This document shows, piece after piece, positions 87 to 35,264 of a DNA stretch of 37,933 nt. The notes under the pieces are model-generated. The model ran no database searches, was not told the origin of the DNA, and was given only the letters and a program-made list of their open reading frames with translations. Origin of the DNA: PVC group bacterium (GTDB taxonomy: Bacteria > Auribacterota > Erginobacteria > Erginobacterales > Erginobacteraceae). The position numbers were made by a program, and so were the translations under genes. Location: the NCBI GenBank assembly GCA_043804695.1, contig JAZDIV010000080.1, positions 1 to 37,933 on the forward strand. Direction: 5' to 3'. Each line of letters begins with the position of its first letter. Position 1 is the first letter of the stretch.

Positions 87-293
87 TAATCGGAAAGATA
101 CGATTATTGAACTCCCGAAACAGGCGAAAAAGCAACCAGGAAAATATTTTGTTTTATTACGCTCAGGGCTTACCGTTGTTTATTGAGCAGTTGCATTTAA
201 ACTAATTCTTGGATAATCATCAGTCTGTTACAAGTTTAAAAAGTACAATTTACTCCAATTCTTTTAAATTAGCGCCGGAGGCGCTAATTTATA
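87..293 (+). repeat. Leader element A, copy 1 (5'-truncated)
   Basis: Near-identical to 4857-5106 and homologous to 10939-11174; ends in taaattagcgcc-GGA-ggcgctaattta 2 nt before an ATG. Confidence 0.9.
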
Positions 294-449
294 ATGAAAG
301 TAAGCTTGCTCAAAGAACTCTGGGATTTCCTGAGAATCAGGAAAAAGTGGTGGCTCCTTCCGATTCTGGTGCTGCTGCTCTTGCTGTTTCTGTTGATCTT
401 TCTGACCAGCAATCCCGCCACCTCTCCCTTCATTTATACTTTATTTTAA
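294..449 (+). CDS. DUF5989-family small membrane protein (51 aa, not in ORF track)
   Basis: Manual translation MKVSLLKELWDFLRIRKKWWLLPILVLLLLLFLLIFLTSNPATSPFIYTLF matches the ELW.FL..RKK.WL.P / PFIYTLF pattern of this family. Confidence 0.85.
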   Translation: MKVSLLKELWDFLRIRKKWWLLPILVLLLLLFLLIFLTSNPATSPFIYTLF

Positions 450-485
450 GCTGAAAGCGTATGCTTTCAGCTTAAAATAAAGTAT
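436..485. terminator. Perfect 23-bp inverted repeat overlapping the DUF5989 stop
   Basis: atactttattttaagctgaaagc-gtat-gctttcagcttaaaataaagtat; terminator role is inferred. Confidence 0.55.
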
Positions 486-630
486 GCAGAAGGCCGCCTT
501 TTGCTATCCGGTGAACCAGAAGGTGTTCCCCGCTTTATTGTGGTCCATTCGGTAAAGCAATTTTTCTGCTGTATAATCTAACCGTGGTATAGTACTCTCC
601 CTGGGGCTAATGCTTATTAATTTTTTAATC

Positions 631-655
631 CAAAATTTTTCGGAGAAAAATTTTG
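631..655 (+). promoter_or_regulatory. cGGAg-triloop hairpin overlapping the smc TTG start
   Basis: caaaatttttc-GGA-gaaaaattttg, perfect 11-bp stem; GGAG lies 7 nt before TTG. Confidence 0.65.
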
Positions 656-3600
656 TATTTAACCAAGATCGAACTGAACGGGTTCAAGTCCTTCGCCGAC
701 AAGACGTCGCTCAAGATCCTGCCCGGGATCACCTCGATCGTCGGCCCCAACGGCTGCGGCAAGACCAACATCGTCGACGCGATCAGCTGGGTCCTGGGAG
801 AGCAGCGGATCAGGCTGCTTCGCGGCTACAAGATGGAGGATGTCATCTTTAACGGCACCTCGGGGCGCCAGCCGGTGGGAATGGCCGAGGTGACCCTCAC
901 TTTCGACAACTCCGACGGCACGCTGCCGGTTGAGTACCGGGAAGTTGGCATTTCCCGCCGCGTCTACCGCTCCGGCGAGAGCGAATATTTTATCAATAAA
1001 AACCCCTGCCGCCTTCGTGACATCAGCGATCTGCTCTTGGGCACCGGTCTGGGAACCCGGGCGTATTCGCTGGTGGGCCAGGGCCGGATCGACCAGATCC
1101 TCCAGGCCCGCCCCGAGGAAAGGAGGCAGCTTCTGGAGGAAGCCGCCCAGATCAGCCGGTACCGGCAGAAGAAGGAAGAATCCCTGCGGAAACTCGAGCA
1201 GACCCAGAACAATCTTCTCCGGATAGAAGACATCCTGAAAGAGGTCAGGCGCCAGCTGTCGATCGCCGATCGCCAGGCCCGCCAGGCCGAGCGGTACCGT
1301 GCCTACCGTGATCGGCTCCGGGAGCTGGAGACGGAAGCGGGTCTCCGGCAGCTGTCCGGATTCCGCCGCCGGTCCCGGGAGCTGGGAGCGGAGAAGGAAC
1401 ACTGGCTGGCAAAATACCGGGCGCTGGAAAAAGAGGTTGAGGAAATCGAAACCGGACTGACGCGGCTGCGGGCCGGCCGCGGGGAGAAGCAGGAGGCGCT
1501 CGCCTCGACGCGGGCCGATCTGATCGGGAACCGGGCGGAGATCGACAAGAGACGGCACCGGATTGAGGTAAACGCCGAGCGGGGGGGTGAACTCAAGCAC
1601 GAGCGTGGGCGGCTGGATGAGGAGATCCGGAAGATCGGGGATTCCCTGGCGGCCGCCCGGAAAGAAACGGGAGATCATGAACGGTCCCGGGAGGGGCTGA
1701 TCGAGGCGAATCAGGCCGCCGCCGAAGCCCTCCGGGGAAAGGAGAAGGAACTGGAGCTTCTGCGCCGCGAGCGGGCGGCGGCGGAGAAAGCGCTGGCGTC
1801 CCTGCAGTCGCAGTCGCTGGAGTTATCGCGCCGGGAAAGCCATCTCCGCAACGAGCTGCTGGGGCTGCAGGCGGGAGGGAAGGAGCTTGCGCTCAGGAAG
1901 AGAAAGCTGGAGGTGGAGCTGGAAAGGGTCGGCGAGGAAGAAGGGGATCTGAAAAAAGAGCTTGCGGAAGCCGAGCCGCTCACCGGGACGGCGGAGAGCG
2001 CTCTCGCCTCCATCCGGGAGCGGTTGGCGGGCGAAAGGACGGCGTCCGCGAAGGCCGAGGAGGAGGCGAGGGCGTTGCGGGTCCGCCGGGAGAGCCTCCT
2101 GGTCGCCGCCGGCGAGCTGGAATCCCGGAAGAGGGCGCTCCAGGAACGGGGCCAGGACGGGTCCGCCGATCTGCTCCTGGCGGCGGTCAGGGAACGGAAA
2201 GCGGACCTGCCGGGGGTGCTCGGCCGCCTGGACGATTTCATCACGATCGAGCCCGGCGGCGAGCGGATGGTCCGCGCCGCCCTGGGGGAGAAAGCCCGCG
2301 CGGTCGTGGCGGTGACCGGATCGGATGCCCTGCGGGCCATTGAGTATTTGCGGGGCAAAAAGACGGGGCCGATCAGGTTTATCGTCCTGGCCTGGCTGCA
2401 GCGCGCCGCGGCCGTCCGGCCCTCCGGCCCCGGCGGTCGGAACGGCGCCGGCCTGTCCCGCCGGATGACCCTTGCCCCTCCCCTGGAAGGCCTGGAGGAA
2501 GCGTTGCTGGAAGGAGAGGTGCCGGTCGTCGAACTCGCCGGGTCGGCCGGGGAAGGGTTCACCCCCTCCCCGGGCCCGGTCGTCACTGTTGAGGGGGCGG
2601 CGATTCTGCCTCCCGGGGTTATCTTCTGGGTCGGCGAGGCGGAACCGGCCGAAGCCTTCGGGCTCCCCGAATTGGAGGCGGAGCTGAAGAGGCTCCGGGC
2701 CGCGAAGGAAGAGGCCGCGGCCGCCGAAAAAGAAATGGAGAAAAGACTGGCCGACCTCCGGGCGAGAGTTGAGGAAACCGTCTGTGACCTGCATCGCCAG
2801 GAGATGGAGGTCGCCCTGGATAACAACGAGCAGGCCCGCCGCCGCCGCGGCCTCCAGAAACTGATTTTGAGCGGCGAGGCGATCAAGAATGAAATCGAGT
2901 CGCTGGCGGAAGAACAGCGCCGGGCCACCGGCCGTTTGGAGCAGCTGGAACTGGAGCTGAAGGAGTGTCCCAGCCGGGATCAGATCGAGGAGGCCCGGCT
3001 CGCCTCGCTCCGGGTCGCTCTCGATGAACGGAACCTCGCCCTCCGCGGCCTGGAGTCGGCGGTCACCGAGATGAAGATCAGCCTGGCCTCCGCCCGGGAG
3101 AGAGAGGACAGCCTGACCGGCCGGCTGGAAAGGCTGTTCGCGGAAAACCGGAACCTGCAGGAGCTGCTGGAGGCCCGCCGCCGCCAGATCGCGGATGACC
3201 AGTCCCGGGAGCGGTCACTGCGGGAAGAGACCGAACAGCTTCGGAAAGATATCGGGGAGCTGGAACTGCAGGTTGACGAACTGAAGTCACGGGTCTCCCT
3301 CGAGGAGGAAGAGATCGGCCGGCTCAACCGGGAATGCGGGGAGAAGGAAGAGGTGTATCAGAAGATCCGCCCCCGGTTTCAGGAGGTGCAGAGCAATCTC
3401 GGTTCCCAGGACGTCACCCTCGCCGAGCTGCGCGTCAAGGAGCAGGCGGTCTGCCAGCGGATACGGGAAAAATATCACATCGAGCTGGATGAACTGGAGC
3501 TCCCGCCCGGAGAGGCCGATCTGGACGCCCTGGCCGGCGAGATCGAGCAGATCCGGGAAAAGATGGACCGGATGACCAGCGTCAACCTGGCGGCCCTCGA

Positions 3601-4201
3601 GGACAAGGAGAATTATGAAGACCGGTTAAAGCTGCTCACCGAACAGAAAAGCGATCTGGAGGCCGCGATCCGGGACATCGATGAGGCCATCACCAGGATA
3701 AACGTGACCGCGCGGGAGAAACTGCAGGCTGCCTACGACACCGTCCGGCAGCATTTCCAGTCTCTCTTTTCGCATCTTTTCGGGGGAGGACTGGCCGACC
3801 TGGTCCTTGATAACGAGAAGGACATCCTCGAATCCGGCCTCGACATCATCGCCCAGCCGCCCGGGAAAAAGCTTTCCCACATATCGCTTCTCTCCGGGGG
3901 CGAGAGGGCCCTCACCACCATCGCCCTGATCTTCGCGCTCTTCAAGGTCCAGCCCAGTCCCTTTTACATCCTGGACGAGATCGACGCCCCCCTCGATGAG
4001 GCCAATATCGGCCGTTTCGTCAACCTGCTCAAGGAGCTGGTGGCCGAGTCCCAGTTCATCATCATCACCCACAACAAGCGTTCGATCAGCGAAGCGGACA
4101 TCCTCTACGGGATCACCATGGAGGAGTCCGGTGTCTCCAAGGTGGTCTCGGTCCGCCTGGGAGCCGGCGCCAAGGCCGAAGAGCCCGTGGAAGCCAGCTG
4201 A
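653..4201 (+). CDS. smc: Chromosome segregation protein SMC
   Basis: GFKSF start, Walker A GPNGCGKTN, long coiled coils with hinge, LSGGE signature, Walker B/D-loop ILDEIDAPLD; 1182 aa. Confidence 0.97.
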   Translation: MYLTKIELNGFKSFADKTSLKILPGITSIVGPNGCGKTNIVDAISWVLGEQRIRLLRGYKMEDVIFNGTSGRQPVGMAEVTLTFDNSDGTLPVEYREVGISRRVYRSGESEYFINKNPCRLRDISDLLLGTGLGTRAYSLVGQGRIDQILQARPEERRQLLEEAAQISRYRQKKEESLRKLEQTQNNLLRIEDILKEVRRQLSIADRQARQAERYRAYRDRLRELETEAGLRQLSGFRRRSRELGAEKEHWLAKYRALEKEVEEIETGLTRLRAGRGEKQEALASTRADLIGNRAEIDKRRHRIEVNAERGGELKHERGRLDEEIRKIGDSLAAARKETGDHERSREGLIEANQAAAEALRGKEKELELLRRERAAAEKALASLQSQSLELSRRESHLRNELLGLQAGGKELALRKRKLEVELERVGEEEGDLKKELAEAEPLTGTAESALASIRERLAGERTASAKAEEEARALRVRRESLLVAAGELESRKRALQERGQDGSADLLLAAVRERKADLPGVLGRLDDFITIEPGGERMVRAALGEKARAVVAVTGSDALRAIEYLRGKKTGPIRFIVLAWLQRAAAVRPSGPGGRNGAGLSRRMTLAPPLEGLEEALLEGEVPVVELAGSAGEGFTPSPGPVVTVEGAAILPPGVIFWVGEAEPAEAFGLPELEAELKRLRAAKEEAAAAEKEMEKRLADLRARVEETVCDLHRQEMEVALDNNEQARRRRGLQKLILSGEAIKNEIESLAEEQRRATGRLEQLELELKECPSRDQIEEARLASLRVALDERNLALRGLESAVTEMKISLASAREREDSLTGRLERLFAENRNLQELLEARRRQIADDQSRERSLREETEQLRKDIGELELQVDELKSRVSLEEEEIGRLNRECGEKEEVYQKIRPRFQEVQSNLGSQDVTLAELRVKEQAVCQRIREKYHIELDELELPPGEADLDALAGEIEQIREKMDRMTSVNLAALEDKENYEDRLKLLTEQKSDLEAAIRDIDEAITRINVTAREKLQAAYDTVRQHFQSLFSHLFGGGLADLVLDNEKDILESGLDIIAQPPGKKLSHISLLSGGERALTTIALIFALFKVQPSPFYILDEIDAPLDEANIGRFVNLLKELVAESQFIIITHNKRSISEADILYGITMEESGVSKVVSVRLGAGAKAEEPVEAS

Positions 4202-4205
4202 CTCC

Positions 4206-4321
4206 ACCCCGCCTCGCCCCCATTTTTAACAGACGATTGAATGTGATTGAATGGGATGGGCGGTTTCCAGTCCGTTCGACGTTCAACGTCGGAAGTTGGA
4301 AGTTCAACGTTGGCCGTTCAT
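4206..4321 (-). repeat. Composite repeat B (heptamer array + ttcaatcacattcaatcgtctg + AAAAGGGGGCGAGG-like motif)
   Basis: Reverse complement has the same module order as 7646-7764 and 8611-8716. Confidence 0.85.
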
Positions 4322-4376
4322 GTCACGTCCTGATTTAAAATTGTCGCTTTTTACCGGTAAAACGTCGTCATACGAT

Positions 4377-4480
4377 GACCCCTGCCGGTTTATCCGGCAG
4401 GTGAATCAGTTCATGAGCTACCGGTTCGCCACACACAAAAAAGACCCCCGCGGCCTTGCGCCGCGGGTGAATGAGTTCAT
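4377..4480 (+). repeat. Two tandem 38-nt GACCCC-hairpin-TGAATNAGTTCAT motifs (IS200/IS605-end-like)
   Basis: 4377-4414 and 4443-4480; further copies at 35488-35525 and 36521-36559; stems covary. Confidence 0.65.
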
Positions 4481-4555
4481 TAGCTATCAAAGTAGCAACT
4501 AAGAACTTTCTCCCCTGCCGCGTAAAGCGGCATTTTTCATATCCAATATTTGCGC

Positions 4556-4584
4556 TTGTCTTTTTCTTGCCGATAACGTATGGT
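4556..4584 (+). promoter_or_regulatory. Putative sigma70 promoter of the riboswitch/rib operon
   Basis: TTGTCT-17 nt-TATGGT; predicted start near 4591 coincides with the aptamer 5' end. Confidence 0.55.
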
Positions 4585-4592
4585 CTTCTCAC

Positions 4593-4711
4593 AATCTTCG
4601 GGGCAGGGTGCGATTCCCGACCGGCGGTGAAAGCCCGCAAACTCCGATAGCTATCGGAGCCGAACCGGCGCGATTCCGGTGCCGACGGTACAGTCCGGAT
4701 GGAAGAAGATT
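4593..4711 (+). promoter_or_regulatory. FMN riboswitch (RFN element) aptamer
   Basis: aatcttcggggcagggtgcgattcccgaccggcggt...gccgacggtacagtccggatggaagaagatt; P1 aatcttc/gaagatt; upstream of riboflavin genes. Confidence 0.95.
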
Positions 4712-4733
4712 CGGAAAAAGGAGCGGTGCCGCA

Positions 4734-4767
4734 TGCCCCGGAGATGGTGTCTCCGGGGTATTTTTTT
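4734..4767 (+). terminator. Intrinsic terminator, riboswitch expression platform
   Basis: tgccccggagat-ggt-gtctccggggta followed by T7. Confidence 0.85.
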
Positions 4768-4795
4768 CTGCGAAAAAATAATAGGCAGTTCTTTT

Positions 4796-4835
4796 AACTT
4801 TAGGCACTTTTAACTTTAGGCACTTTAGGCACTTC
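4796..4835. repeat. 9-mer tandem array (taggcactt)
   Basis: aactttaggcacttttaactttaggcactttaggcacttc; a degenerate inverted unit lies near 6345-6359. Confidence 0.75.
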
Positions 4836-4856
4836 AGAACGTTGCCCGAACGAAGT

Positions 4857-5106
4857 GAGGGCTAAGTTCCTGTTTCGGAATTTCAATAATCGGAAAGATC
4901 CGATTATTGAACTCCCGAAACAGGCGAAAAAGCAACCAGGAAAAAATATTTTGTTTTGTTTTGTTTTATTACACTCAGGATTTACCGTTGTTTATTGAGC
5001 AGTTACATTCAAACTAATTCTTGGGTAATCATCAGTCTGTTACAAGTTTAAAAAGGTACAATTCACTCCAATTCTTCTAAATTAGCGCCGGAGGCGCTAA
5101 TTTATA
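4857..5106 (+). repeat. Leader element A, copy 2
   Basis: 5' hairpin ctgtttcggaatttcaataatcgg/ccgattattgaactcccgaaacag, AT-rich middle, 3' GGA-triloop hairpin at 5078-5104 before the ribBA ATG. Confidence 0.9.
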
Positions 5107-5107
5107 T

Positions 5108-6307
5108 ATGACTTCCTTTGATCCCATAGATAGCCTGGTCGCCGACCTCCAGGCCGGGAAGATGGTCATCCTCACCGACGACGAGAGCCGGGAAAACGAG
5201 GGCGATTTGGTGATGGCGGCGGAGAAGATCACCCCGGAAGCGGTCAACTTCATGATCTCCCGGGGCCGGGGCCTGGTCTGCGTCCCGATGACGGCGGAGC
5301 GCCTGTCCGCGCTGGGCCTGGAGCCGATGGTGAAGAACAACCGCGACACCTTCGGTACCGCGTTTACCGTTTCGGTTGACGCCGCCCAGGGCGTCACCAC
5401 CGGCATTTCGCCGGCCGACCGGGCCCGGACGATCAGGATTCTTTCCGGCCCGGACTCCGGCCCGGGGGACATCGTCACCCCCGGACATGTCTTCCCCCTG
5501 GAAGCCCGTCCCGGCGGTGTCCTGGTCCGGGCCGGCCACACCGAGGCGGCGGTCGACCTGATGCGGCTGGGCGGCCTGATCCCGGCGGGGGTCATCTGCG
5601 AGATCATCAATGACGATGGGACCATGGCCCGTCTCTCCGAGCTGCAGAGGTTCGGGGAGGAGCATGGGCTGAAGATGGGGACGATCGCCGCCCTGATCCG
5701 GGAACGCCGCTCGCGGGAGAAACTGGTTCAGGAAACGGTGACCGCATCGCTCCCGACCGCCTATGGAGATTTTACCCTGAAAATGTTCACCTCGTCGATA
5801 GGGGACGGGGGGCCCCATCTGGCCCTGATCATGGGAGAAGTGGCGGGCAAGGAGAACGTGCTGGTCCGGGTCCACTCGAAATGCCTGACCGGCGATCTTT
5901 TCAAGTCCCGCCGCTGCGATTGCGGCGAGCAGCTTGAATTCGCTCTCAGGAAAGTGGGGGAAGAAGGAAGGGGAGTCATCCTCTACATGGATCAGGAGGG
6001 GAGAGGCATCGGCCTGGAGAGCAAGCTGGCGGCCTACGCTCTCCAGGACCGAGGTTTGGACACGGTTGAGGCCAACGAAGAGCTCGGCTTTGAGGCGGAT
6101 CTGCGGGAGTACGGCATCGGCGCCGAAATCCTCCGCCAGCTCGGACTGAGCAGTATCCGGCTGATGACCAATAACCCCCGCAAGATCATCGGCTTGAAAG
6201 GGTATGGTCTGAGCATCACCGGGATCGTTCCCGTCAAGATCCCCCCCAACAAGCATAATTACCGTTATCTCATGACGAAGAAAAATAAGATGGGGCACCA
6301 TCTCTGA
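5108..6307 (+). CDS. ribBA: Bifunctional DHBP synthase / GTP cyclohydrolase II
   Basis: DDESRENEGD, RAGHTEA, RVHSKCLTGD...RCDCGEQL, QEGRGIGL, LMTNNP. Confidence 0.97.
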   Translation: MTSFDPIDSLVADLQAGKMVILTDDESRENEGDLVMAAEKITPEAVNFMISRGRGLVCVPMTAERLSALGLEPMVKNNRDTFGTAFTVSVDAAQGVTTGISPADRARTIRILSGPDSGPGDIVTPGHVFPLEARPGGVLVRAGHTEAAVDLMRLGGLIPAGVICEIINDDGTMARLSELQRFGEEHGLKMGTIAALIRERRSREKLVQETVTASLPTAYGDFTLKMFTSSIGDGGPHLALIMGEVAGKENVLVRVHSKCLTGDLFKSRRCDCGEQLEFALRKVGEEGRGVILYMDQEGRGIGLESKLAAYALQDRGLDTVEANEELGFEADLREYGIGAEILRQLGLSSIRLMTNNPRKIIGLKGYGLSITGIVPVKIPPNKHNYRYLMTKKNKMGHHL

Positions 6308-6335
6308 AATTTCCCCTGCGGGGAAAATTTCAGAG
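6302..6335. terminator. Hairpin spanning the ribBA stop (cGCAg loop on minus strand)
   Basis: ctctgaaatttcccc-tgc-ggggaaaatttcagag; no T-tract, function uncertain. Confidence 0.4.
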
Positions 6336-6470
6336 TGAAGTTCAAAGTGTCTAAAGTTGCCCGACCCGGCAAAACTCCCCCAAGGATCACATTCAATCAA
6401 AATATAAAAACATCGAATACCGGATAAGTAACAAAGCTTTCCCCAAAAAACCTCTGATTGGAGTGAATAC

Positions 6471-6544
6471 AAGGGTCCGAGGTAGAGGCCAAAAAATCCT
6501 ATTCAATCACATTCAATCGTCTGATAAAAGCGGCGAGATAGAGG
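6471..6544 (+). repeat. Partial composite repeat B
   Basis: aagggtccgaggtagagg...ttcaatcacattcaatcgtctg...aaaagcggcgagatagagg, parallel to 13318-13399. Confidence 0.8.
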
Positions 6545-6578
6545 CTGTATTCGTCTGTTCAACCAAGGGAGGGAAGCG

Positions 6579-7043
6579 ATGAAAATTTATGAAGGCAAAC
6601 TGAACGCGGCCGGGCTGAAGTTCGGCCTCGTCATCAGCCGGTTCAACGAATTCATCACCGGAAAGCTGCTGGAAGGAGCCCTCGACGCCCTGAAAAGAAA
6701 CGGCGCCGCGGAAGATGATATCGAGGCCGCCTGGGTCCCCGGGTCCTGGGAGATTCCGGCGGCGGCCGCCCGGATGGCCCGGAGCCGCCGGTATGACGCG
6801 ATCATCTGCCTGGGAGCGGTGATTAAGGGGGCGACCGCCCACTGGCAGTACATCAGCACCCAGGTCACCCGGGGGATTGCCGCCGTCGGACAGGAAAGCT
6901 CTCTCCCCGTATCGTACGGGCTGATCACGCCCGATACCCTGGAGCAGGCGATCGAGAGAGCGGGGACCAAGGCCGGCAACAAGGGCTTTGATGCCGCGAT
7001 GGCCGCGATCGAGATGGCGAACCTGTTCAAGGAACTGGCATAG
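6579..7043 (+). CDS. ribH: 6,7-dimethyl-8-ribityllumazine synthase
   Basis: [48 protein letters not shown] upstream. Confidence 0.97.
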
Positions 7044-7095
7044 GGTTCAGGGGACAGGGTTCAGGGGACACGGTTCAGGGGACAGGGTTCAGGGG
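7042..7095. repeat. 14-bp (2x7) tandem array (agggttcaggggac)x~4
   Basis: Seen directly; begins inside the ribH stop codon. Confidence 0.9.
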
Positions 7096-7104
7096 CTGCC
7101 CGGA

Positions 7105-7151
7105 ATGGCCGCGATCAAGATGGCGAACCGTTTCAAGGAGTTAGCATAGGG
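7105..7151 (+). pseudogene. Duplicated 3' end of ribH (MAAIKMANRFKELA*)
   Basis: 41 of 47 nt identical to 6999-7045. Confidence 0.85.
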
Positions 7152-7216
7152 CAGAGAGCATAGGGCATAGCGCCCTGAGGCAGGTTACGCTATGCCCTCT
7201 GCGCTCTGCGCTATGC
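7144..7216. repeat. Inverted pair of heptamer arrays (gcatagg/gcagaga versus gctatgc/gctctgc)
   Basis: 29-nt arms with 3 mismatches around a 15-nt spacer. Confidence 0.85.
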
Positions 7217-7238
7217 GATTTCCCGGAGGAAAATTTTA

Positions 7239-7655
7239 ATGAGCAGACGACGGCAGGCGAGGGAGCTGGCGCTCCAGTTTCTTTACGGCTACGACCTGAA
7301 CCGGAAGGAGCTGACGGAGGCGTCGGCCGACTTCTGGAAGGGGAAGAATCTTCCCGCTGACGTGCGCCGGTTTGCCGGGGAACTGATCGACGGCACCGTC
7401 GCCCATCTCGATCAGATCGACCGGGTCATCGCCGATCATGCCCGGAACTGGAAGCTTTCCCGGCTCGCCCTGGTCGACAAGCAGATCTTGCGCCTGGCGC
7501 TCTACGAACTCTACTACCGCGATGACATTCCTCCCCTGGTTACCATCAACGAGGCGGTGGAGATCGCGAAGAAATTCAGCACGGACCAGTCCGGCCACTT
7601 CGTCAACGGCATTCTGGACAAGGTTCGGGAAGAAATTGAAAAGAATGAACGTTGA
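7239..7655 (+). CDS. nusB: Transcription antitermination factor NusB
   Basis: RRRQARELALQFLY, NWKLSRLALVDKQILRLA, INEAVEIAKKF, FVNGILD; follows ribH. Confidence 0.96.
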   Translation: MSRRRQARELALQFLYGYDLNRKELTEASADFWKGKNLPADVRRFAGELIDGTVAHLDQIDRVIADHARNWKLSRLALVDKQILRLALYELYYRDDIPPLVTINEAVEIAKKFSTDQSGHFVNGILDKVREEIEKNER

Positions 7656-7764
7656 ACGTCGAACGTCCAACGTTGAACGTCTAACTTCGAACGTAAGAAG
7701 CCCGGATGCCCCCCTCCTATTCAATCACATTCAATCGTCTGTTAAAAAGGGGGCGAGGTGGAGG
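7646..7764 (+). repeat. Composite repeat B overlapping the nusB stop
   Basis: (gaacgtt/gaacgtc/caacgtt)n, aagcccggatgcccccc, ttcaatcacattcaatcgtctgtt, aaaaagggggcgagg. Confidence 0.9.
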
Positions 7765-7786
7765 ATTTATTGTCTGAAGGTAGTCG

Positions 7787-8614
7787 ATGAACGCGGAAAA
7801 AACAGCCGATCTTCACATCCACACCCTGGCCTCGGATGGCGCCTATTCCGCGCGGGAAGTTCTGAACGCGGCCCGGGTGGCGGGGCTTTCCGCCATCGCC
7901 ATCACCGATCACGATTCGGTTGAAGCTCTTCCCGAAGCGATCTCTCTCGCCGAAGAGTACGGGATTGAAGTTATTCCCGGGATCGAGATCTCGGTCGAGC
8001 TGGATGCGGCTGAGATGCACCTGCTCGGGTACTTTGTCGACTATCGGGATCCCGGGTTCCGGGAGCGGCTCGCCCTGCTGCGGCGGGTCCGCGCCTGCCG
8101 GGCGGAGGCGATGCTGAAGATACTTGAAGAGATGGGGTTCCCCCTGGACATGGAGAAGCTGCTCCCCGGCCAGATGACCGGAGCGATCGGGCGACTGCAC
8201 ATCGCCCAGGCTCTTTTCCGCTCCGGTTACGTGCAAAGCCTGTCCGAAGCGTTCTCCAGGTACATCGGCAACAACGGACCAGCGTATGTGTCGAAGATGA
8301 AACTTTCCAAGGAAGACGCCCTGGCAATGATTCTCCGCGCAGGCGGGGTTCCGGTGCTGGCTCACCCGGGGCAGCTGGACAGAGATGAACTGATCCCGGA
8401 TTTGATCAAACTGGGCCTGGCCGGCCTGGAGGCGTATTACCCGTCTCACTCCCGCTTCACGACCAATCACTACCTGGAACTGGCCCGGCATTACCATATT
8501 CTGGCGACGGGCGGGTCGGATTGCCACGGGACGAACAAAGAAAAAATCCTGATCGGCACGGTCCGGGTCCCCTACCGGGTGGTGGAGGAACTGCGGGAGA
8601 GAAATAAAAGATGA
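7787..8614 (+). CDS. PHP-domain metal-dependent phosphoesterase (YciV/TrpH-like)
   Basis: DLHIHT, ITDHD, PVLAHP, TGGSDCHG metal-binding motifs. Confidence 0.92.
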   Translation: MNAEKTADLHIHTLASDGAYSAREVLNAARVAGLSAIAITDHDSVEALPEAISLAEEYGIEVIPGIEISVELDAAEMHLLGYFVDYRDPGFRERLALLRRVRACRAEAMLKILEEMGFPLDMEKLLPGQMTGAIGRLHIAQALFRSGYVQSLSEAFSRYIGNNGPAYVSKMKLSKEDALAMILRAGGVPVLAHPGQLDRDELIPDLIKLGLAGLEAYYPSHSRFTTNHYLELARHYHILATGGSDCHGTNKEKILIGTVRVPYRVVEELRERNKR

Positions 8615-8716
8615 ACATCGAACATCCAACGTCGAACTTCGAACGGAAAAAGCCCGGATGCCCCCCTCCATTCAATCACATTCAATCGTCTGTTAAAAAG
8701 GGGGCGGGGCAGGGGG
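8611..8716 (+). repeat. Composite repeat B overlapping the PHP stop and abutting the ftsY start
   Basis: Same modules as 7646-7764 with fewer heptamer units. Confidence 0.9.
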
Positions 8717-8722
8717 AGCGAG

Positions 8723-9649
8723 ATGGGGAAAAAGCTCGACCAGGGACTTGACAAAACCCGGCAGTCTTTGAAGAAAAGAATCTCGCGCTGGCTGGGCGGA
8801 AAAGGGAGGCTGCCCGCTGAGTTCTGGGAGGACTGGGAAGCCGCCCTGATCGAGGTCGATCTCGGCGTCGGGACGGCGACGGCGCTCCTCGATGCCGCCC
8901 GCGCCGCCGGCAAGAAAAACCAGACTCCGGCCGGGATCAAGGAAAAACTGGGAGAGACGCTGACCGGGATTCTGGAGAAGAACCGGAAAAAGCTTCCCGC
9001 GGGGCCGTCGCCGGCCGGGAAGCCCGTCGTGATCATGGTGGTCGGGGTGAACGGGACCGGGAAGACGACCGCCGTCGCCAAGCTGGCAGGCAGACTGGCA
9101 TCCTCCGGCGCGCGGGTCATTCTGGGAGCCTGCGATACCTTCCGGGCCGCCGCCATCGAGCAGCTGCAGATCTGGGCCGACCGGCTGCAGGTCGAGGTTA
9201 TCCGCCAGCAGTACGGCGGGGACCCGGCCGCGGTCGCCTTCGACGCCCTGCAGGCAGCCGTGTCCCGGGGCTGCGATTACCTGCTTCTCGACACGGCCGG
9301 CCGGCTTCACACCCGGGACACCCTGATGGATGAACTGGGGAAGATTTCCCGGGTATTGCGGAAGATCAAGCCTTCGGCGCCGGACGAGATATTTTTATGT
9401 CTCGACGCCACGTTCGGACAGAACGGCCTGGCCCAGGCCCGGAGCTTCGCGGAGAAATTGCCCCTGACCGGCGTGCTGCTGACCAAGCTGGACGGCACCG
9501 CCCGGGGCGGCATCGTTGTCTCCATCCAGCAGGAACTGGGTCTCCCCGTCGTCGCCCTCGGCGTCGGCGAGGACGTGGCCGATCTCGTTGAATTCGACCC
9601 GGCTGCGTTTGTCCAGGCCTTGCTCGAAGAACCGGAAGCGCTCGATTAA
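8723..9649 (+). CDS. ftsY: Signal recognition particle receptor FtsY (short, NG-only form)
   Basis: GLDKTR amphipathic start, GVNGTGKTT, DTFRAAA, DTAGR, TKLDGTARGG, GVGE. Confidence 0.96.
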   Translation: MGKKLDQGLDKTRQSLKKRISRWLGGKGRLPAEFWEDWEAALIEVDLGVGTATALLDAARAAGKKNQTPAGIKEKLGETLTGILEKNRKKLPAGPSPAGKPVVIMVVGVNGTGKTTAVAKLAGRLASSGARVILGACDTFRAAAIEQLQIWADRLQVEVIRQQYGGDPAAVAFDALQAAVSRGCDYLLLDTAGRLHTRDTLMDELGKISRVLRKIKPSAPDEIFLCLDATFGQNGLAQARSFAEKLPLTGVLLTKLDGTARGGIVVSIQQELGLPVVALGVGEDVADLVEFDPAAFVQALLEEPEALD

Positions 9650-9697
9650 GAGGATAGAGAAGACCGGAGTGCAACAATAATAATTTTATTTTATTTT

Positions 9698-9733
9698 TGT
9701 CCCTGATGTCCTTTGTGTCACTGGCGTCCCTTG
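9698..9733. repeat. 9-mer tandem array
   Basis: tgtccctga tgtcctttg tgtcactgg cgtcccttg. Confidence 0.7.
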
Positions 9734-9754
9734 TCAGGTAACAGGAAACCGTAA

Positions 9755-10993: not shown

Positions 10994-11174
10994 AATTCCG
11001 AAACAGACGAAAAAGCAACCAGAATAAAATAATCAGGTTTTGTCTTATGATACCAAGGGCTTACCGTTACGGATTGAGCGGTTAGACTCGAACTAATTTT
11101 CGGATCGCTATCAATCTGTTTTATATTTATAAAGAGAAAATTCACTAAATTAGCGCCGGAGGCGCTAATTTATA
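10939..11174 (+). repeat. Leader element A, copy 3 (diverged)
   Basis: Same two hairpins as copy 2, with a compensatory T-A to C-G pair; GGA hairpin at 11146-11172 before the ribE ATG. Confidence 0.88.
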
Positions 11175-11807: not shown

Positions 11808-11838
11808 AAGGTTTTCTTCTACTTCACTTTTATGGCTC

Positions 11839-12045
11839 GACCTTGCTCGAAAAGCTCGTAAGTTCTCAAATCCTAATGTCTTCACCCAAAGGCTGATCCG
11901 CCTCTGGCGGAAAATACTAAATCCTAAACAATGGGGCTAAAACCGGCGATATTTTGAGCATTTGGTCATTTGGATTTAGGATTTATTTAGGATTTCGATA
12001 TTAGAATTTAGGATTTCCTGCTCGAAAACTTTTTCGAGCAGGGTC
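11839..12045. mobile_element. MITE-like element with 15-bp TIRs enclosing inverted heptamer arrays and a nested palindrome
   Basis: gaccttgctcgaaaa ... ttttcgagcagggtc (1 mismatch); internal aaatcct/aggattt arrays; no clear TSD. Confidence 0.7.
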
Positions 12046-12092
12046 TATCTCAATTGATGCAGAACGCCGGTAAAGAAGCGTTAGGGCCACCA

Positions 12093-12127
12093 CATTAGTA
12101 ATTGGTCATTGGACATTGGTCATCTGG
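12093..12127. repeat. Heptamer array (cattggt)
   Basis: cattagt aattggt cattgga cattggt catctgg. Confidence 0.7.
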
Positions 12128-12790: not shown

Positions 12791-12847
12791 CCCGATTTAT
12801 GCCTGCCGGTCGACAGACCGGCAGGCATAAATCGGGTTGGTTTTGAA
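12788..12847 (+). repeat. Stop-codon-anchored palindrome, copy 2, with a 26-bp palindrome at its centre
   Basis: taacccgatttat[gcctgccggtc-gaca-gaccggcaggc]ataaatcgggttggttttgaa. Confidence 0.8.
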
Positions 12848-12858
12848 AGTAAGAATCA

Positions 12859-12887: not shown

Positions 12888-12955
12888 CTTTCTTGTTAGA
12901 ATAAAATTTACGGTTTTATTTTTTCGAAGAAAAAATAAAAGGGGGGTGAATTTAG

Positions 12956-33057: not shown

Positions 33058-33080
33058 TTATTTTTTCTTCGAAAAAATAA
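33058..33080 (-). promoter_or_regulatory. cGAAg-triloop hairpin directly abutting the giant-gene ATG
   Basis: Minus strand ttattttttc-GAA-gaaaaaataa-ATG; identical 23-mer upstream of rpsU at 12916-12938. Confidence 0.65.
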
Positions 33081-33352: not shown

Positions 33353-33418
33353 TGAAGGTCGCCGCTACGAAGTTAGCGCGAAGCGCTAAGCTCCTTTTTG
33401 TACAAAAACCCCGTTTAT

Positions 33419-33544: not shown

Positions 33545-33573
33545 TTGACCCCCTTTCTCTCTTGTATTAGACT
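33545..33573 (+). promoter_or_regulatory. Putative promoter of the glycosyltransferase gene
   Basis: TTGACC-17 nt-TAGACT. Confidence 0.6.
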
Positions 33574-33601
33574 TAACTCTTTGAAATTAGGTTCACAACT
33601 C

Positions 33602-33624
33602 TAATTTTCTCGGAGAGAAAATTA
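33602..33624 (+). promoter_or_regulatory. cGGAg-triloop hairpin 2 nt before ATG
   Basis: taattttctc-GGA-gagaaaatta-ta-ATG, perfect 10-bp stem. Confidence 0.65.
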
Positions 33625-33626
33625 TA

Positions 33627-35264
33627 ATGGGAACCACCGCCGAATATCGCCGCCTTTTCGACAGGATAACATTAACCGGATTCATTATCCTGGTCACGAT
33701 AGTCATCGGCGTTCTCTGCTGGGGGATCTACTACTCCCGGCACTATGAAGGGATTTTAACCATTGACGCGATGAACCAGGCGCAGGTCGCCCGCCATCTC
33801 TTCCGGGGGGAAGGACTGACCACCAGTTTTCTCAAGCCGGTCTCTATCCTGCTCGGGAATTACTCGGTACCTACCCCCGATTGCTATATCTCGCCTTTAC
33901 CGGTTCTGATCCTCTCCCGATTCCTTAAGGTCATCGGGCTGAACGACTTTGCCGTTCTCGGCTATTCAGTTTTCTGGGCTTTCTTTGCCGGGATTCTGCT
34001 GCTGCTGTTATCGCGGATGCTTTTCCATCACCTGATCATTGCTTTGCTGGTTTTCCTGAACTACATGTTCAATATCGGCGTCCTGGAAAGTTCTTTCTCC
34101 GGGCTTTCGATGACGGTTATTTCCTGTATCTTGTTGATCGTGATATGGTTGTATTATGTCCGGAACCGTTCATCCGTGGTCTGGACAATGATTTTCGGCA
34201 TTCTGGCCGGGATACTATATTTAAGTGAGTTTGATTTTTTATTTCTGGCAGTCCCTCTGGGGGTTTTAACTGTCATTGACTCGAAAGGAAATAGATGGCC
34301 GCACGCTCTCGTTTTTCTCTTCGCTTTTGTTTTGGTCGCTCTGCCCTGGATGATCAGGAATGCCGTGGTCACCGGCAATCCGTTCTTCTCCCTCAGATGG
34401 CTTGATTTCAAGGCGTTCAGCCTGCCCTTCCCCGGGAATAAAATCACCCGGGATTTTGCCGTTTCCTCGTTTGCCTCAACTTTGCCGATGACAATCTTAT
34501 GGAATAAGTTCCTGATGTTCAATCGCCTGATGTATTCCTTGTGGCTTTCTCTCTCGCTCTCTCTCCTGCTCCCGCTGTTCCTCGCGGGAGGTTTACTCCG
34601 GTTTCAGGATGCCCGCTGGGGAAGAGCGATGCGGCTGGCAATAATCCTTTTTTTCTCGCAGCTGGCTTTAATAGCGGCCGGGAACGGTGATTTCGCGCGT
34701 CTCTTATCGTTTATGCCGCTGATAGTGGTGGGAGGGATGGCCGGCTTTATACAATTGCTCGCCGATCTCAAGCTGAAAACAGAGAAGCGATACTGGCTGA
34801 TGATTTCTATCTTGTGCTGTGTAAATTTTTTCCCCGGGCTGATCAGTTTGGTGTACGGACTTCCTGAACAGAGGTATATATCAGCAGCCTTTTCAAAAGA
34901 TGAGGCGGCGCTATTGAAAGAAGCCGGGACCATGGATAAGATACGGAGGATGATGAAGGATGATGAGGTTGTTGTTTCCGACATCCCCTGGGCGGTAGCC
35001 TGGTATGCCGGCCGGAAAGCGGTCTGGATCCCCTGGGAAATTGAGCAGATGAAGGCCATTAAACAGGAAGTTAAGAATTTACGGTTTCTTCATCTTTCCC
35101 CGATGATATTCAGGTATCCTGGGGTTGAAAATGCCGGCCCCTGGCGGGAGATCTACAGAAGCGGGATGGTTCCGGAGTGGCTGGAAGTCGATCGGGGAAT
35201 CCTCCTCCCCGGCGATCACCTCTTCATGGGGGACATTATCTTTGAACGGCTTGACCTGGAATAA
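33627..35264 (+). CDS. Multi-TM GT-C glycosyltransferase (ArnT/PMT_2, GT39-like)
   Basis: D..NQAQVARHL..GEG after TM1, many TM helices, PWMIRN..VTGNPF motif, C-terminal SDIPWAVAWY.GR. Confidence 0.8.
   Translation: MGTTAEYRRLFDRITLTGFIILVTIVIGVLCWGIYYSRHYEGILTIDAMNQAQVARHLFRGEGLTTSFLKPVSILLGNYSVPTPDCYISPLPVLILSRFLKVIGLNDFAVLGYSVFWAFFAGILLLLLSRMLFHHLIIALLVFLNYMFNIGVLESSFSGLSMTVISCILLIVIWLYYVRNRSSVVWTMIFGILAGILYLSEFDFLFLAVPLGVLTVIDSKGNRWPHALVFLFAFVLVALPWMIRNAVVTGNPFFSLRWLDFKAFSLPFPGNKITRDFAVSSFASTLPMTILWNKFLMFNRLMYSLWLSLSLSLLLPLFLAGGLLRFQDARWGRAMRLAIILFFSQLALIAAGNGDFARLLSFMPLIVVGGMAGFIQLLADLKLKTEKRYWLMISILCCVNFFPGLISLVYGLPEQRYISAAFSKDEAALLKEAGTMDKIRRMMKDDEVVVSDIPWAVAWYAGRKAVWIPWEIEQMKAIKQEVKNLRFLHLSPMIFRYPGVENAGPWREIYRSGMVPEWLEVDRGILLPGDHLFMGDIIFERLDLE

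Follow-up and report, generated by a model that had tools for sequence, protein, structure and literature searches.

Mosaic intergenic palindromes resembling REP, BIME and BOX elements have probably been co-opted as a portable Shine–Dalgarno (SD) site in the bacterial genome considered here (G000), a reading to which a probability of roughly 0.6 is assigned. The window, i.e., the whole stretch of 37,933 nucleotides that was analysed, contains recurrent hairpins in which a C–G pair closes a GNA triloop, and these hairpins would represent the terminal modules, or the sole surviving part, of family-restricted mosaic intergenic repeat cassettes. Such palindromes are set flush with coding and tRNA units, with the GNA strand reading 5'→3' into the neighbouring unit. 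When a palindrome lies within ~5 nt of a start codon, the loop and the first G's of the stem (GGAG or GGAGG) would provide the SD for a canonical anti-SD, and selection would then retain GGA in the start-flush loop; when the hairpin lies further from the start, the gene would use its own SD located behind the hairpin. The net role would be that of a portable boundary hairpin with a ready-made ribosome-binding site, and neither that of a new initiation code nor that of a regulon switch.

Hairpins in the Window

All hairpins described in the earlier note are present in the sequence, and seven of them lie 0–3 nt from a start codon or overlap it, as claimed. Their recurrence, the preservation of pairing through compensatory changes, the fixed closing C–G pair with a GNA loop and the orientation towards starts were equally confirmed. 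The following features are found in the window:

265–291, plus strand: family-A palindrome TAAATTAGCGCC-GGA-GGCGCTAATTTA, 12-bp stem; the ATG at 293 opens a small ORF
631–655, plus strand: solo hairpin CAAAATTTTTC-GGA-GAAAAATTTTG, 11-bp stem, covering the TTG start of smc (653)
4590–4761, plus strand: FMN riboswitch aptamer (4590–4714) and T-run terminator hairpin (4733–4761), 5' of ribBA
4759–5104, plus strand: repeat-cassette block of ~345 nt, from the riboswitch terminator to the ribBA ATG
6302–6335, minus strand: ribBA stop-adjacent hairpin, with a sense-strand TGC loop (GCA on the minus strand) and the TGA stop inside the 5' arm
7217–7235, plus strand: imperfect GGA hairpin with one C.A mismatch, 3 nt 5' of the nusB ATG (7239)
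10956–11172, plus strand: ribE leader cassette, comprising a hairpin with a 22-bp stem (10956–11002) and a family-A GGA palindrome (11146–11172)
12914–12940, plus strand: rpsU-leader GAA hairpin, 12-bp stem, 15 nt 5' of the GTG start (12956)
13572–13632, no strand assigned: GC-rich doublet of near-identical, inversely oriented hairpins separated by 9 nt, the first with a TCC and the second with a GGA loop
33058–33080, minus strand: GAA hairpin, 10-bp stem, 0 nt from the ATG of a 5896-aa gene
33373–33389, plus strand: short family-A-like hairpin TTAGCGC-GAA-GCGCTAA inside a divergent spacer
33602–33624, plus strand: GGA hairpin, 10-bp stem, 2 nt 5' of an ATG (33627)
36996–37013, plus strand: hairpin with a stem of 7 bp and a 4-nt loop, CCCG (not GNA), 3 nt 5' of an in-frame ATG of the TPR gene (37017)

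The gene names proposed earlier for smc, ribBA, nusB, ribE (Lum_binding), rpsU and the TPR gene are supported by Pfam, as is ribH, whereas the genes named DUF5989 and GT-C have no Pfam match at E ≤ 1e-5.

The palindromes at 265–291, 5078–5104 and 11146–11172 share identical 12-bp stems and a GGA loop. The first of them closes a repeated ~220-nt leader at its 3' end, and its family A comprises 78 oriented copies in G000 (≤2 mismatches), in which similarity stops exactly at the outer edge of the palindrome. At this position, G001, G003 and G006 have related imperfect palindromes with the loops GAA, GCA and GAA, respectively.

A difference between relatives is found at ribBA. The FMN aptamer matches RF00050 with 108 bits and is followed by a predicted terminator-like site (4733–4761). 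The cassette block that comes next, present only in G000 among the genomes compared, begins on the left with a TGC-loop hairpin (4759–4780), whose 5' arm is the T-run of the terminator, and ends on the right with the family-A GGA palindrome. In G006 and G002, the ribBA ATG stands directly 3' of the terminator T-run with no block between them, and the junction in G001 holds a different repeat of ~115 nt. Such an insertion can part a riboswitch from the gene that it controls. At the ribBA stop, a comparable hairpin occurs in G002 and tandem arrays in other relatives. The ribE leader cassette, whose left hairpin extends over the preceding gene's stop and whose GGA palindrome lies 2 nt 5' of the ATG (11175), has at least 15 copies with 76–89% identity on other G001 contigs.

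The orthologous leaders provide a mixed picture, in which some hairpins are kept with paired changes and many orthologues have none. Pairing is preserved in this way in nusB, rpsU and other stems. The nusB leader of G006 has TTTATCC-GGA-GGATAAA in the corresponding position, two pairs being altered on both sides, and the hairpin is absent from G003 and G004. Likewise, the rpsU hairpin appears in G003 as TTTTATTTTTAC-GGA-GTAAAAATAAAA, with one pair altered on both sides, and is missing in G002, G004 and G006. In the window, rpsU has a separate SD (GGGGGGTGA) between hairpin and GTG start, as well as a promoter-like site (12874–12902) 5' of the hairpin. The smc hairpin is kept in G001 only, the place being occupied by other repeat modules in G003 and G004 and by none in G002 and G006. 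The computed RNA folding energies are −7.1 kcal/mol for the smc hairpin, −7.6 kcal/mol for 33602–33624 and −5.1 kcal/mol for the GAA hairpin 33058–33080, where no SD-like sequence is found at the start of the 5896-aa gene.

Abundance and Design of the Hairpins

The genome G000, 88% complete, contains 664 perfect triloop hairpins (stem ≥8 bp), 327 of which are of the c-GNA-g type or its complement and comprise 206 distinct stem/loop combinations. A custom, crude codon-score caller assigned 78% of the bases to 2152 genes, and the hairpin centre falls outside called genes in 307 of the 327 cases. The 669 kb of intergenic DNA hold 529 triloop and 306 c-GNA-g hairpins, against means of 14.2 (maximum 23) and 0.25 (maximum 1), respectively, in 20 dinucleotide-preserving shuffles, which places the pattern far beyond chance expectation. 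Moreover, the reversed, not complemented, control pattern yields 0–1 matches versus 175 for TTTTYCGNAGRAAAA.

The hairpins follow a common design consisting of a T-rich arm, C, GNA, G and an A-rich arm, with stems of 8–15 bp, most commonly 12. In 12-bp arms, exemplified by the stems TAAATTAGCGCC, TCTTATTTTTCC and TAAAATTTTTC, the outermost base is T in 87%, and 5' arms carry T in 56–67% at positions 3–7 from the loop. Perfect hairpins (327, stem ≥8 bp) outnumber those with one mismatch (125, ≥10 pairs). The single mismatches on the GNA strand include 25 G.T versus 21 A.C, and 6 versus 6 at starts, i.e., there is no preference for G.U.

Repeat Cassettes, Distribution and Turnover

About half of the hairpins are the ends of longer repeated cassettes: the 60-nt inner flank is repeated in 175 of 327 and the outer flank in 76 of 327, and cassette similarity ends at the outer edge of the palindrome. 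At least four different interiors terminate in the same family-A palindrome, and one and the same interior is combined with B-type as well as A-type ends, whichever way it lies in the genome. Usually, a cassette begins and ends with different palindrome families, e.g., TCTTATTTTTCC on one side and TAAATTAGCGCC on the other. As for a putative target-site duplication, TAA was seen by eye to flank 3 of 9 cassettes on either side, and the flank logo is weak (T/A/A, 41–45%). On the other hand, simple copy-and-paste does not explain the 45 of 77 start-flush hairpins whose inner flank is not repeated, nor the solo start-flush hairpins, among which 39 of 43 have distinct stems.

Three genomes of one family contain the hairpin class in large numbers; among the remaining members of that family its occurrence is patchy, and elsewhere in the phylum it stays near background. 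The signal is therefore not lineage-wide. TTTTYCGNAGRAAAA occurs 175 times in G000, 139 in G001 and 108 in G003, 0–31 times in six further genomes, the rest of that family, 8–12 times in one sister family and 0–7 times in the remaining 66 genomes, with 0–5 for the controls. Family A itself is matched in 5 of 41 genomes, all of one family, and orthologues in relatives often have a plain SD without hairpin. Turnover is also apparent within the family, since the orthologous G000 starts of eight alignable start-flush hairpins of G001 carry a hairpin in four cases and were scored as having none in the other four, one of which has a related imperfect palindrome missed by the finder.

Polarity with Respect to Genes and tRNAs

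The two strands of the genome carry the motif equally (CGGAG 74 versus CTCCG 70), yet a strong bias emerges relative to genes. A unit, gene or tRNA, lies within 5 nt 3' of the GNA strand in 114 of 315 hairpins (77 starts and 37 ends) and within 5 nt on its 5' side in 8 of 315, seven of which fill the entire spacer, these adjacency counts being approximate and probably lower bounds, since starts were chosen without SD information by a crude gene caller. Because units adjoin the 3' side of the GNA strand, the sense strand reads GNA before genes and TNC after them. Hairpins before genes have GNA in sense versus antisense in 71 versus 4 cases. In co-directional spacers, TNC-sense prevails over GNA-sense by 44 to 5 in the quintile at the upstream stop, and GNA-sense prevails by 92 to 16 in the quintile at the downstream start. 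When two hairpins share one spacer, the order is TNC-then-GNA in 23 of 36 pairs and GNA-then-TNC in 3 of 36. The same polarity is observed among 122 solo hairpins with unique flanks (62 versus 7) and in samples of relatives (9 versus 0 in 400 kb of G001; 4 versus 1 in 205 kb of G003).

These data do not agree with an initiation code at start codons, as the earlier note had proposed, given that the same palindromes abut stops and tRNA 3' ends in inverse orientation (37 ends versus 77 starts). Moreover, 16 of 36 tRNAs have hairpins flush with their 5' ends under a relaxed hairpin criterion; tRNA 5' ends need no ribosome, and therefore the hairpins are no start-codon code. The polarity at gene ends (37 versus ~1) involves all three loop types equally and is not explained by SD selection. 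In annotating this uncultured lineage, one can use the hairpins to locate the starts and ends of genes, as well as tRNA ends, to within a few nucleotides.

Intrinsic termination was considered as a function and rejected, the hairpins having a T-rich 5' arm and an A-rich 3' arm and not a GC-rich stem followed by a T-run. Canonical A-run/stem/T-run terminators occur separately, e.g., after tRNAs.

The GGA Loop and Ribosome Binding

The 16S rRNA of G000 terminates in ...GGATCACCTCCTTT, with the 3' end CACCTCCTTT, and its anti-SD is canonical. Genome-wide, GGAG peaks at −10 to −15. GGA loops are found in 53 of 71 start-flush hairpins versus 86 of 244 elsewhere (Fisher p = 5e-9), an enrichment confined to hairpins flush against starts, and solo hairpins carry GGA in 32 of 43 cases at starts versus 7 of 19 at gene ends (p = 0.009). 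In G001, the loop is GGA in 7 of 8 start-flush hairpins. The distance between hairpin and start is bimodal, with 71 hairpins at −3 to +5, 6 at 6–11 and 17 at 12–17; in gaps of 12–45 nt, a separate SD-like word is present in 26 of 46. In start-flush hairpins, loop and stem yield GGAG or GGAGG complementary to the anti-SD, 13–17 nt 5' of the start. As judged from these sequences, the GGA loop at gene starts most likely doubles as an ordinary ribosome-binding site. If so, housekeeping genes, among them smc, ribBA and ribE, illustrate how a palindrome between genes, be it selfish or neutral, can come to serve as a functioning ribosome-binding site. Of the two alternatives in the earlier note, the translational signal code is not borne out, and the DNA-level mini-element domesticated as a ribosome-binding site comes close to the data.

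Some features fit less well. The mode of the loop SD, at 15 nt before the start, is 3–4 nt further away than the usual GGAG of the genome, and two of its G's are paired. Family-A hairpins might inhibit initiation rather than serve it, in view of a computed RNA stability of −15.7 kcal/mol. In addition, 18 of the 71 start-flush hairpins have GAA or GCA loops, and some of these genes, e.g., the giant gene, are then without SD.

A function at the RNA level would account for part of these observations, in that a 5'-UTR hairpin would tune translation or protect the 5' end and a stop-flush 3' hairpin would stabilise the 3' end or stall terminating ribosomes, as known from E. coli REPs, all of them being maintained by selection, not mobility, with the cassettes as by-products. 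This agrees with the GGA enrichment at starts and with the two-sided changes through which pairing survives between genera in nusB (G000 versus G006) and rpsU (G000 versus G003), and the promoter-like sites 5' of hairpins, at rpsU and by eye also at smc and the gene at 33627, mean that the hairpins would be transcribed. Furthermore, ribosome stalling has been reported for REPs located <16 nt from a stop codon (PMC12306157, citing Liang et al. 2015). However, single mismatches lack a G.U preference on either strand, sister-genus orthologues have no hairpins, TTTTYCGNAGRAAAA counts span 0–31 inside one genus, and tRNA genes carry hairpins as well. Moreover, energy rules give no cause for an obligatory UNC after genes and GNA before them, and the special stability of c-GNA-g is a property of DNA, RNA versions being much less stable (PMC13037366). 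Taken together, an RNA-level function is unlikely as the reason for these hairpins.

Hairpin-reading systems already known are extremely improbable candidates. The GGA loop and the proximity of a hairpin to the SD recall CsrA/RsmA sites and RNA thermometers, both brought up in the earlier note, but in thermometers of the ROSE/fourU type the SD is occluded, whereas here it lies unpaired in the loop and the stems are perfect, not metastable or imperfect. The search for CsrA (PF02599) returned no match in G000, at its 88% completeness, and control matches in 3 of 14 genomes. N4-type promoters, likewise mentioned there, require the hairpin on the template strand. They would need GNA antisense before genes, and the opposite orientation is seen, although c-GGA-g and c-GAA-g are the loops of N4 promoters (PMC13037366). 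Furthermore, the same hairpins stand at gene ends and tRNAs.

Candidate Enzymes and Single-Stranded DNA

DNA mini-hairpins of the form d(GCGNAGC) have been reported from ssDNA initiation signals, namely the G4 origin, RSF1010 ssiA and promoters of the N4 virion RNA polymerase (PMC13037366, PMC3201870). The closing C–G pair and GNA triloop are identical here, and so are the GGA and GAA loops; however, those signals are single phage or plasmid ssDNA sites with 3–7-bp stems, whereas here hundreds of chromosomal hairpins have AT-rich stems of 8–15 bp. On one reading, each cassette strand might end 3' in a very stable c-GNA-g DNA mini-hairpin, which would prime itself or recruit a primase or HUH enzyme while the cassette spreads via an ssDNA intermediate, and the polarity would be the footprint of this process. 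The GNA form is indeed what both strands of a spacer have at their 3' ends (23 of 36 pairs are TNC-then-GNA; polarity 114 versus ~1), and perfect palindromes prevail (327 versus 125 with one mismatch) with no G.U bias.

The search for partner enzymes weighs on the other side. Six PF01797 (Y1_Tnp) matches exist in G000, and their 700-nt flanks contain other, GC-rich repeats or 28-bp inverted repeats and no c-GNA-g palindromes. Among the enzymes sought, none that would mobilise the hairpins was identified and none lies beside them: the Y2 transposase is represented by a fragment of 28 positions only, and a RepB-type primase was not found in a search without positive control. Y1_Tnp matches are most numerous in hairpin-rich genomes (6, 9 and 20 versus 2–4), which is a weak hint, as relatives are not independent. 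In addition, the two cassette ends are different palindrome families, and transposition hardly accounts for solo hairpins whose stems are unique. Such single-stranded DNA signals are very unlikely to be the explanation. A broader formulation, quite unlikely too, would have either ssDNA-spreading cassettes primed or recognised at GNA hairpins as at ssi signals, or polar boundary marks read by a DNA-tracking machine; in the former case, the cassettes would be previously undescribed non-autonomous elements that install ready-made ribosome-binding sites and boundary hairpins. Since this loop has its special character in DNA alone, its strict orientation towards genes offers a testable clue to how REP-like repeats spread or act.

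Comparison with Known Intergenic Repeats

The interpretation as co-opted REP/BIME/BOX-like palindromes draws on several described families. The RAYT Y1-mobilised REP, BIME and REPIN elements of Proteobacteria are similar in their 20–40-nt palindromes, hundreds of intergenic copies, lineage-specific expansions and mosaics (PMC3116915, PMC3733652, PMC12306157), and, as with REPs, many copies here lie few nucleotides from stops. Nevertheless, the present elements have no GTAG/CGTC tag, start their AT-rich arms with T and show a fixed c-GNA-g triloop; their orientation towards genes is nearly without exception, and of the gene-flush copies two thirds adjoin starts or tRNA 5' ends, where the loop supplies GGAG. 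Unlike in REP–RAYT systems, where copies of the same repeat flank the RAYT gene, other, GC-rich repeats surround the Y1_Tnp genes of G000. With BOX elements of Streptococcus pneumoniae, they share interchangeable modules, a variable interior, defined ends, intergenic location and co-transcription with neighbours (PMC3049150), whereas the end modules here are perfect palindromes flush with start or stop codons, of unrelated sequence and in a host of a different phylum.

Correia elements of Neisseria, ERIC and RUP are, like the present cassettes, non-autonomous intergenic repeats of 100–350 nt that vary between relatives. Both groups can bring promoters, fold as RNA and affect neighbours in an orientation-dependent way, and TA-rich termini are frequent in both (PMC2649163, PMC2229807). 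Unlike in MITEs with terminal inverted repeats, the ends here are two palindrome families, not one terminal inverted repeat, and an SD supplied by a hairpin loop was not found in two MITE reviews searched for it. Tight inverted doublets, of which the AT-rich majority has none, belong to the GC-rich CGTT(A/C)CCACGC subfamily only, with 3 copies. The doublet at 13572–13632, which resembles a REPIN, recurs on contigs C1 and C144.

Hairpins of the window

The hairpins that recur beside start codons in the window, in which a GNA triloop is closed by a C–G pair (c-GNA-g, reading TNC on the complementary strand), are best explained as a DNA-level mini-element domesticated as a ribosome-binding site, a reading to which we assign a probability of about 0.6; the alternative proposal of the earlier note, a new initiation code, is not supported. 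All hairpins named there are present, and the gene names smc, ribBA, ribH, nusB, ribE, rpsU and TPR are borne out by Pfam, while DUF5989 and GT-C found no Pfam match at E ≤ 1e-5.

Hairpins and associated features
265-291, 5078-5104 and 11146-11172: three identical 27-mers, TAAATTAGCGCC-GGA-GGCGCTAATTTA, copies of a palindrome with a 12-bp stem (family A)
631-655: AT-rich hairpin before smc
7217-7235: AT-rich hairpin before nusB
12914-12940: AT-rich hairpin before rpsU
33080-33058: AT-rich hairpin before the 5896-aa gene
33602-33624: AT-rich hairpin before the gene at 33627 (the stems of these five AT-rich hairpins differ)
36996-37013: hairpin of the TPR gene, with a 7-bp stem and a 4-nt loop
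13572-13632: REPIN-like doublet of two inverse GC-rich GNA hairpins 9 nt apart, also found in contigs C1 and C144
15367-33057, minus strand: single ORF of 5896 aa, with Beta_helix and NosD domains in its first 1000 residues

Genome-wide census

The draft genome that contains the window as contig C80 (G000; 2.97 Mb, 155 contigs, 57.8% G+C) harbors 664 perfect hairpins whose loop is 3 nt long and whose stem has 8 bp or more, among which the six commonest combinations of closing pair and loop are CGGAG (74), CTCCG (70), CTTCG (64), CGAAG (56), CTGCG (30) and CGCAG (26). The c-GNA-g form, on either strand, accounts for 327 of the 664 and comprises 206 distinct stem/loop combinations, with stem length peaking at 12 bp. 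Genes were called by codon log-odds scoring, with long ORFs as the training set (2152 genes, 78% of bases), choosing as start the start codon with maximal coding score and ignoring both Shine–Dalgarno (SD) sequences and hairpins, and 36 tRNAs were located with ARAGORN; all gene-adjacency counts carry the errors of this caller. The intergenic DNA so delimited (669 kb, 46.6% G+C) contains 529 triloop hairpins, 306 of them c-GNA-g, against means of 14.2 and 0.25 in 20 dinucleotide-preserving shuffles. Chance and low complexity are ruled out by these shuffles together with a reversed-pattern control. Regarding composition, the 5' arm is T-rich (T in 56–67% at positions 3–7 from the loop) and the 3' arm A-rich, and T is the outermost base in 87% of the 12-bp arms. 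This is the reverse of the arm composition of intrinsic terminators, whose canonical form (A-run, GC-rich stem, T-run) is present separately, e.g., after tRNAs.

Polarity relative to genes and tRNAs

For a census of polarity, hairpins were oriented so that the loop reads GNA, and the 12 of 327 lying wholly within called genes were excluded. On the 3' side of the GNA strand, a gene or tRNA lies at most 5 nt away in 114 of the remaining 315 hairpins (77 facing a start, 37 facing an end), compared with 8 of 315 on the 5' side, where seven hairpins span an entire spacer, and so contact a gene at either end, and the eighth is located at a contig end. The sense-strand loop is therefore GNA before genes and TNC after them; in other words, each strand of a spacer has the GNA form at its 3' end. 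Thus, although the two genome strands carry equal numbers of hairpins, the orientation towards genes is clearly biased. In co-directional spacers, hairpins gather at both ends and are mixed in the middle, with 44 TNC-sense versus 5 GNA-sense beside the upstream stop and 92 GNA-sense versus 16 TNC-sense beside the downstream start. Where a spacer holds two hairpins (36 pairs), the order is TNC-then-GNA in 23, the reverse in 3 and same-sense in 10. The polarity is kept among the 122 hairpins with both flanks unique (62 versus 7) and in samples of two relatives, namely 400 kb of G001 from the same genus (9 versus 0) and 205 kb of G003 from another genus (4 versus 1). The window hairpins at 6302-6335 and 4762-4778 on the minus strand, previously regarded as lying away from starts, are stop-side or terminator-side members that obey the same rule. 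N4-type promoters, with which the hairpins had been compared, require the hairpin on the template strand, whereas here GNA occupies the sense strand before genes and, therefore, the comparison does not hold where expression of the neighboring gene is concerned.

The pattern extends to tRNA genes when a relaxed hairpin is considered (at least 7 pairs, at most one mismatch, loop of 3–5 nt, hairpin end at −5 to +3), and several tRNAs carry a TNC hairpin 2–4 nt past their 3' end. Since hairpins stand flush with tRNA 5' ends, they are not solely a translation signal.

Relaxed hairpins at the 5' ends of units
tRNA 5' ends: 16/36; c-GNA-g 8
CDS starts: 158/2122; c-GNA-g 109
Control 60 nt farther upstream: 56/2108; c-GNA-g none among the commonest loops listed

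Two interactions between hairpins were considered and rejected. A panhandle joining the 5' and 3' hairpins of one unit would require both, and both are perfect in 4 of 2188 units (2.1 expected), with the stem likeness of paired hairpins equal to that of random pairs (0.53 versus 0.53). As to loop–loop kissing across a spacer, the same middle base occurs in about 10 of the 23 TNC-then-GNA pairs, where about 8 are expected.

The loop as a probable Shine–Dalgarno site

The 16S rRNA ends in ...GGATCACCTCCTTT and GGAG peaks 10–15 nt before called starts; thus, the organism uses normal SD recognition. Among the 71 hairpins at or overlapping CDS starts, the loop is GGA in 53, GAA in 15 and GCA in 3, while GGA makes up 86 of the 244 loops away from CDS starts (Fisher p = 5e-9) and the three loop types are equally frequent at gene ends (12, 12, 13). 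The same preference is seen in solo hairpins with unrelated stems, where GGA accounts for 32 of 43 at starts versus 7 of 19 at ends (p = 0.009). The distance between hairpin and start is bimodal, with 71 hairpins at −3 to +5 (mode 2 nt, 30 cases), 6 at 6–11 and 17 at 12–17, and a separate SD-like word occurs in 26 of the 46 gaps of hairpins 12–45 nt from the start. Both the GGA enrichment and the spacing would be expected if the loop and the first G's of the stem (GGAG or GGAGG) acted as the SD only when nothing else can, and they argue that a hairpin at a flush position most likely is the ribosome-binding site. However, several observations speak against a simple role of this kind: the loop lies 13–17 nt before the start, 3–4 nt beyond the usual distance; two G's of the putative SD are base-paired; the family-A hairpin folds stably as RNA (−15.7 kcal/mol, the AT-rich ones being weak at −5 to −8 kcal/mol); and some start-flush hairpins have no SD at all, e.g., that of the giant 5896-aa gene, a GAA hairpin directly abutting a start that lacks any SD-like sequence. 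As for transcription, no sharp peak of −10-like hexamers precedes the hairpins, and a promoter at fixed distance was therefore rejected. At rpsU, a promoter-like site is located upstream of the hairpin, which lends no support to a leaderless-mRNA or promoter reading there. As for RNA evidence, no sequencing run was found for positions 4200-14100.

Repeat elements and their distribution

The family-A palindrome has 78 oriented copies in the genome at up to two mismatches. At least four different repeated leaders, each about 200 nt long, terminate 3' in this palindrome, and their similarity ends exactly at its outer edge. Complete cassettes, i.e., repeated intergenic blocks bounded by palindromes, measure 190–350 nt. 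At one end a T-rich palindrome abuts the upstream stop, and at the other a family-A palindrome abuts the start or SD of the downstream gene. Both genome orientations are represented, and a cassette always points the same way as the genes around it. Of the 327 hairpins, 175 have a 60-nt inner flank that recurs elsewhere in the genome, and only 76 have an outer flank that does so. Nevertheless, the inner flank is unique in 45 of the 77 start-flush hairpins and the stem is distinct in 39 of the 43 solo start-flush ones, and thus the recurring unit is the hairpin itself and not only the cassette. Further repeats were noticed in the window.

Other repeats of the window
11839-12047: repeat of about 210 nt after ribE, found 15 times or more on other G001 contigs at 75–89% identity
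35300-35700 and 36290-36700: stretches of about 400 nt that appear by eye to be near-duplicates, including REP-like hairpins
7044-7095, 7656-7700, 8615-8650, 13640-13680 and 36400-36470: tandem arrays of short units (GGTTCAGGGGACA..., CGAACGTC/CAACGTT...) that start right after stop codons; in relatives these sites carry different arrays
6500-6540, 7716-7760, 8672-8715 and 13690-13720, and in reverse 4215-4260 and 35275-35310: motif TTCAATCACATTCAATCGTCTGTTAAAAAGGGGGCG, recurring closely upstream of several genes and after smc, and present in G001 too

Family A was matched in 5 of 41 related genomes, all of them members of the family to which the window belongs. A generic core, TTTTYCGNAGRAAAA, was counted in 79 genomes of the phylum, and its number ranges from 0 to 31 inside one five-member genus. 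Such patchy counts fit expanding repeats and not a core translation mechanism.

Occurrences of the core TTTTYCGNAGRAAAA
G000: 175
G001: 139
G003: 108
Other six genomes of the family: 31, 26, 21, 8, 2, 0
One sister family: 8-12
Remaining 66 genomes: 0-7
Reversed-pattern control: 0-5

Turnover at orthologous sites

Synteny with five relatives is maintained across positions 1-13200. In the relatives G006 and G002, the ATG of ribBA directly follows the T-run of the FMN-riboswitch terminator, while in G000 (window 4590-5108) about 345 nt of cassettes lie between terminator and ATG, beginning with a TGC hairpin that uses the terminator T-run as its 5' arm and ending with the GGA palindrome of family A, which stops 3 nt short of the ATG. 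Another repeat, of about 115 nt, occupies the same junction in G001. The insertion may weaken riboswitch control of ribBA in G000. The smc hairpin is common to G000 and G001 only, with other repeat modules in G003 and G004 and none in G002 and G006. The nusB hairpin recurs in G006 with two pairs altered on both sides, and that of rpsU in G003 with one pair altered on both sides and the loop changed from GAA to GGA. Twelve start-flush hairpins sampled from G001 and G003 were also followed, excluding three from G003 without a match in G000 and one from G001 without N-terminal alignment. The eight alignable cases, all from G001, include four in which the G000 orthologue also bears a hairpin, in some cases with an altered stem, and four scored as hairpin-less, one of which has a related imperfect palindrome missed by the finder. 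Over the time that separates genera, hairpins are therefore gained, lost or exchanged for others, and their pairing is kept while they are present.

Proposed DNA-level origin and known systems

Among single stem mismatches on the GNA strand, G·T and A·C are found in 25 and 21 distinct sequences, respectively, and in 6 each at starts; G·T is not preferred over A·C and, thus, there is no sign of one protected RNA strand, although the power of this comparison is low. The c-GNA-g motif with its C–G closing pair is reported as a 'mini-hairpin' of exceptional stability in DNA and much lower stability in RNA, and occurs in ssDNA initiation signals such as the G4 origin, RSF1010 ssiA and N4 promoters (PMC13037366; PMC3201870). 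Speculatively, the two GNA 3' ends of a spacer would be the expected outcome if an element were copied from ssDNA through priming by a 3' hairpin.

REP elements of E. coli are described as lying 1–20 nt downstream of stop codons, and those at less than 16 nt as causing ribosomes to stall (PMC12306157, which cites Liang et al. 2015 for this); the stop-side half of the pattern described here is therefore REP-like. Among other elements, orientation-dependent effects are reported for ERIC (PMC2229807) and promoter or RNase III effects for Correia elements (PMC2649163). What is unusual is that the start-side half presents a probable SD within a fixed triloop, that copies also abut tRNAs, and that the polarity is almost absolute, a trio of which no description was found in the literature searched, limited as its coverage was. 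A review on MITEs (PMC10969869) does not mention Shine–Dalgarno, ribosome binding or start codon; 'Shine-Dalgarno' and 'start codon' are absent from PMC2229807, where 'ribosome' appears once in another context; and none of the papers found on Auribacterota concerns repeats, as judged by title or abstract.

Candidate partner enzymes

CsrA, which the earlier note had linked to the GGA loops, was not found in G000. Six Y1_Tnp (RAYT/IS200-like) matches are present there, and they were rejected as partner enzymes because their flanks carry other, GC-rich repeats that differ from the GNA palindromes. A search for Y2_Tnp returned a fragment only, and RepB primase was not found in a search run without positive control. 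Across nine genomes of the family, Y1_Tnp matches number 6, 9 and 20 in the three hairpin-rich genomes and 2–4 in the others, a weak hint that their number tracks hairpin abundance, since the relatives are not independent.

GC-rich REP-like hairpins with a conserved GAATNAGTTCA flank
4381-4401 and 4447-4467 (4381-4467)
35500-35520
36524-36546

The same GC-rich repeats flank a Y1_Tnp (RAYT-like) gene at 10537-13836 of contig C62 in G000 and constitute with it a classical REP–RAYT pair, distinct from the GNA palindromes. Elsewhere in G000 (contig C43, 47550-50873), 28-bp inverted repeats enclose a 335-aa Y1_Tnp-like gene; immediately after the right-hand repeat come GGAGG and then the ATG of the next gene, and relatives of this long form are numerous in G003.
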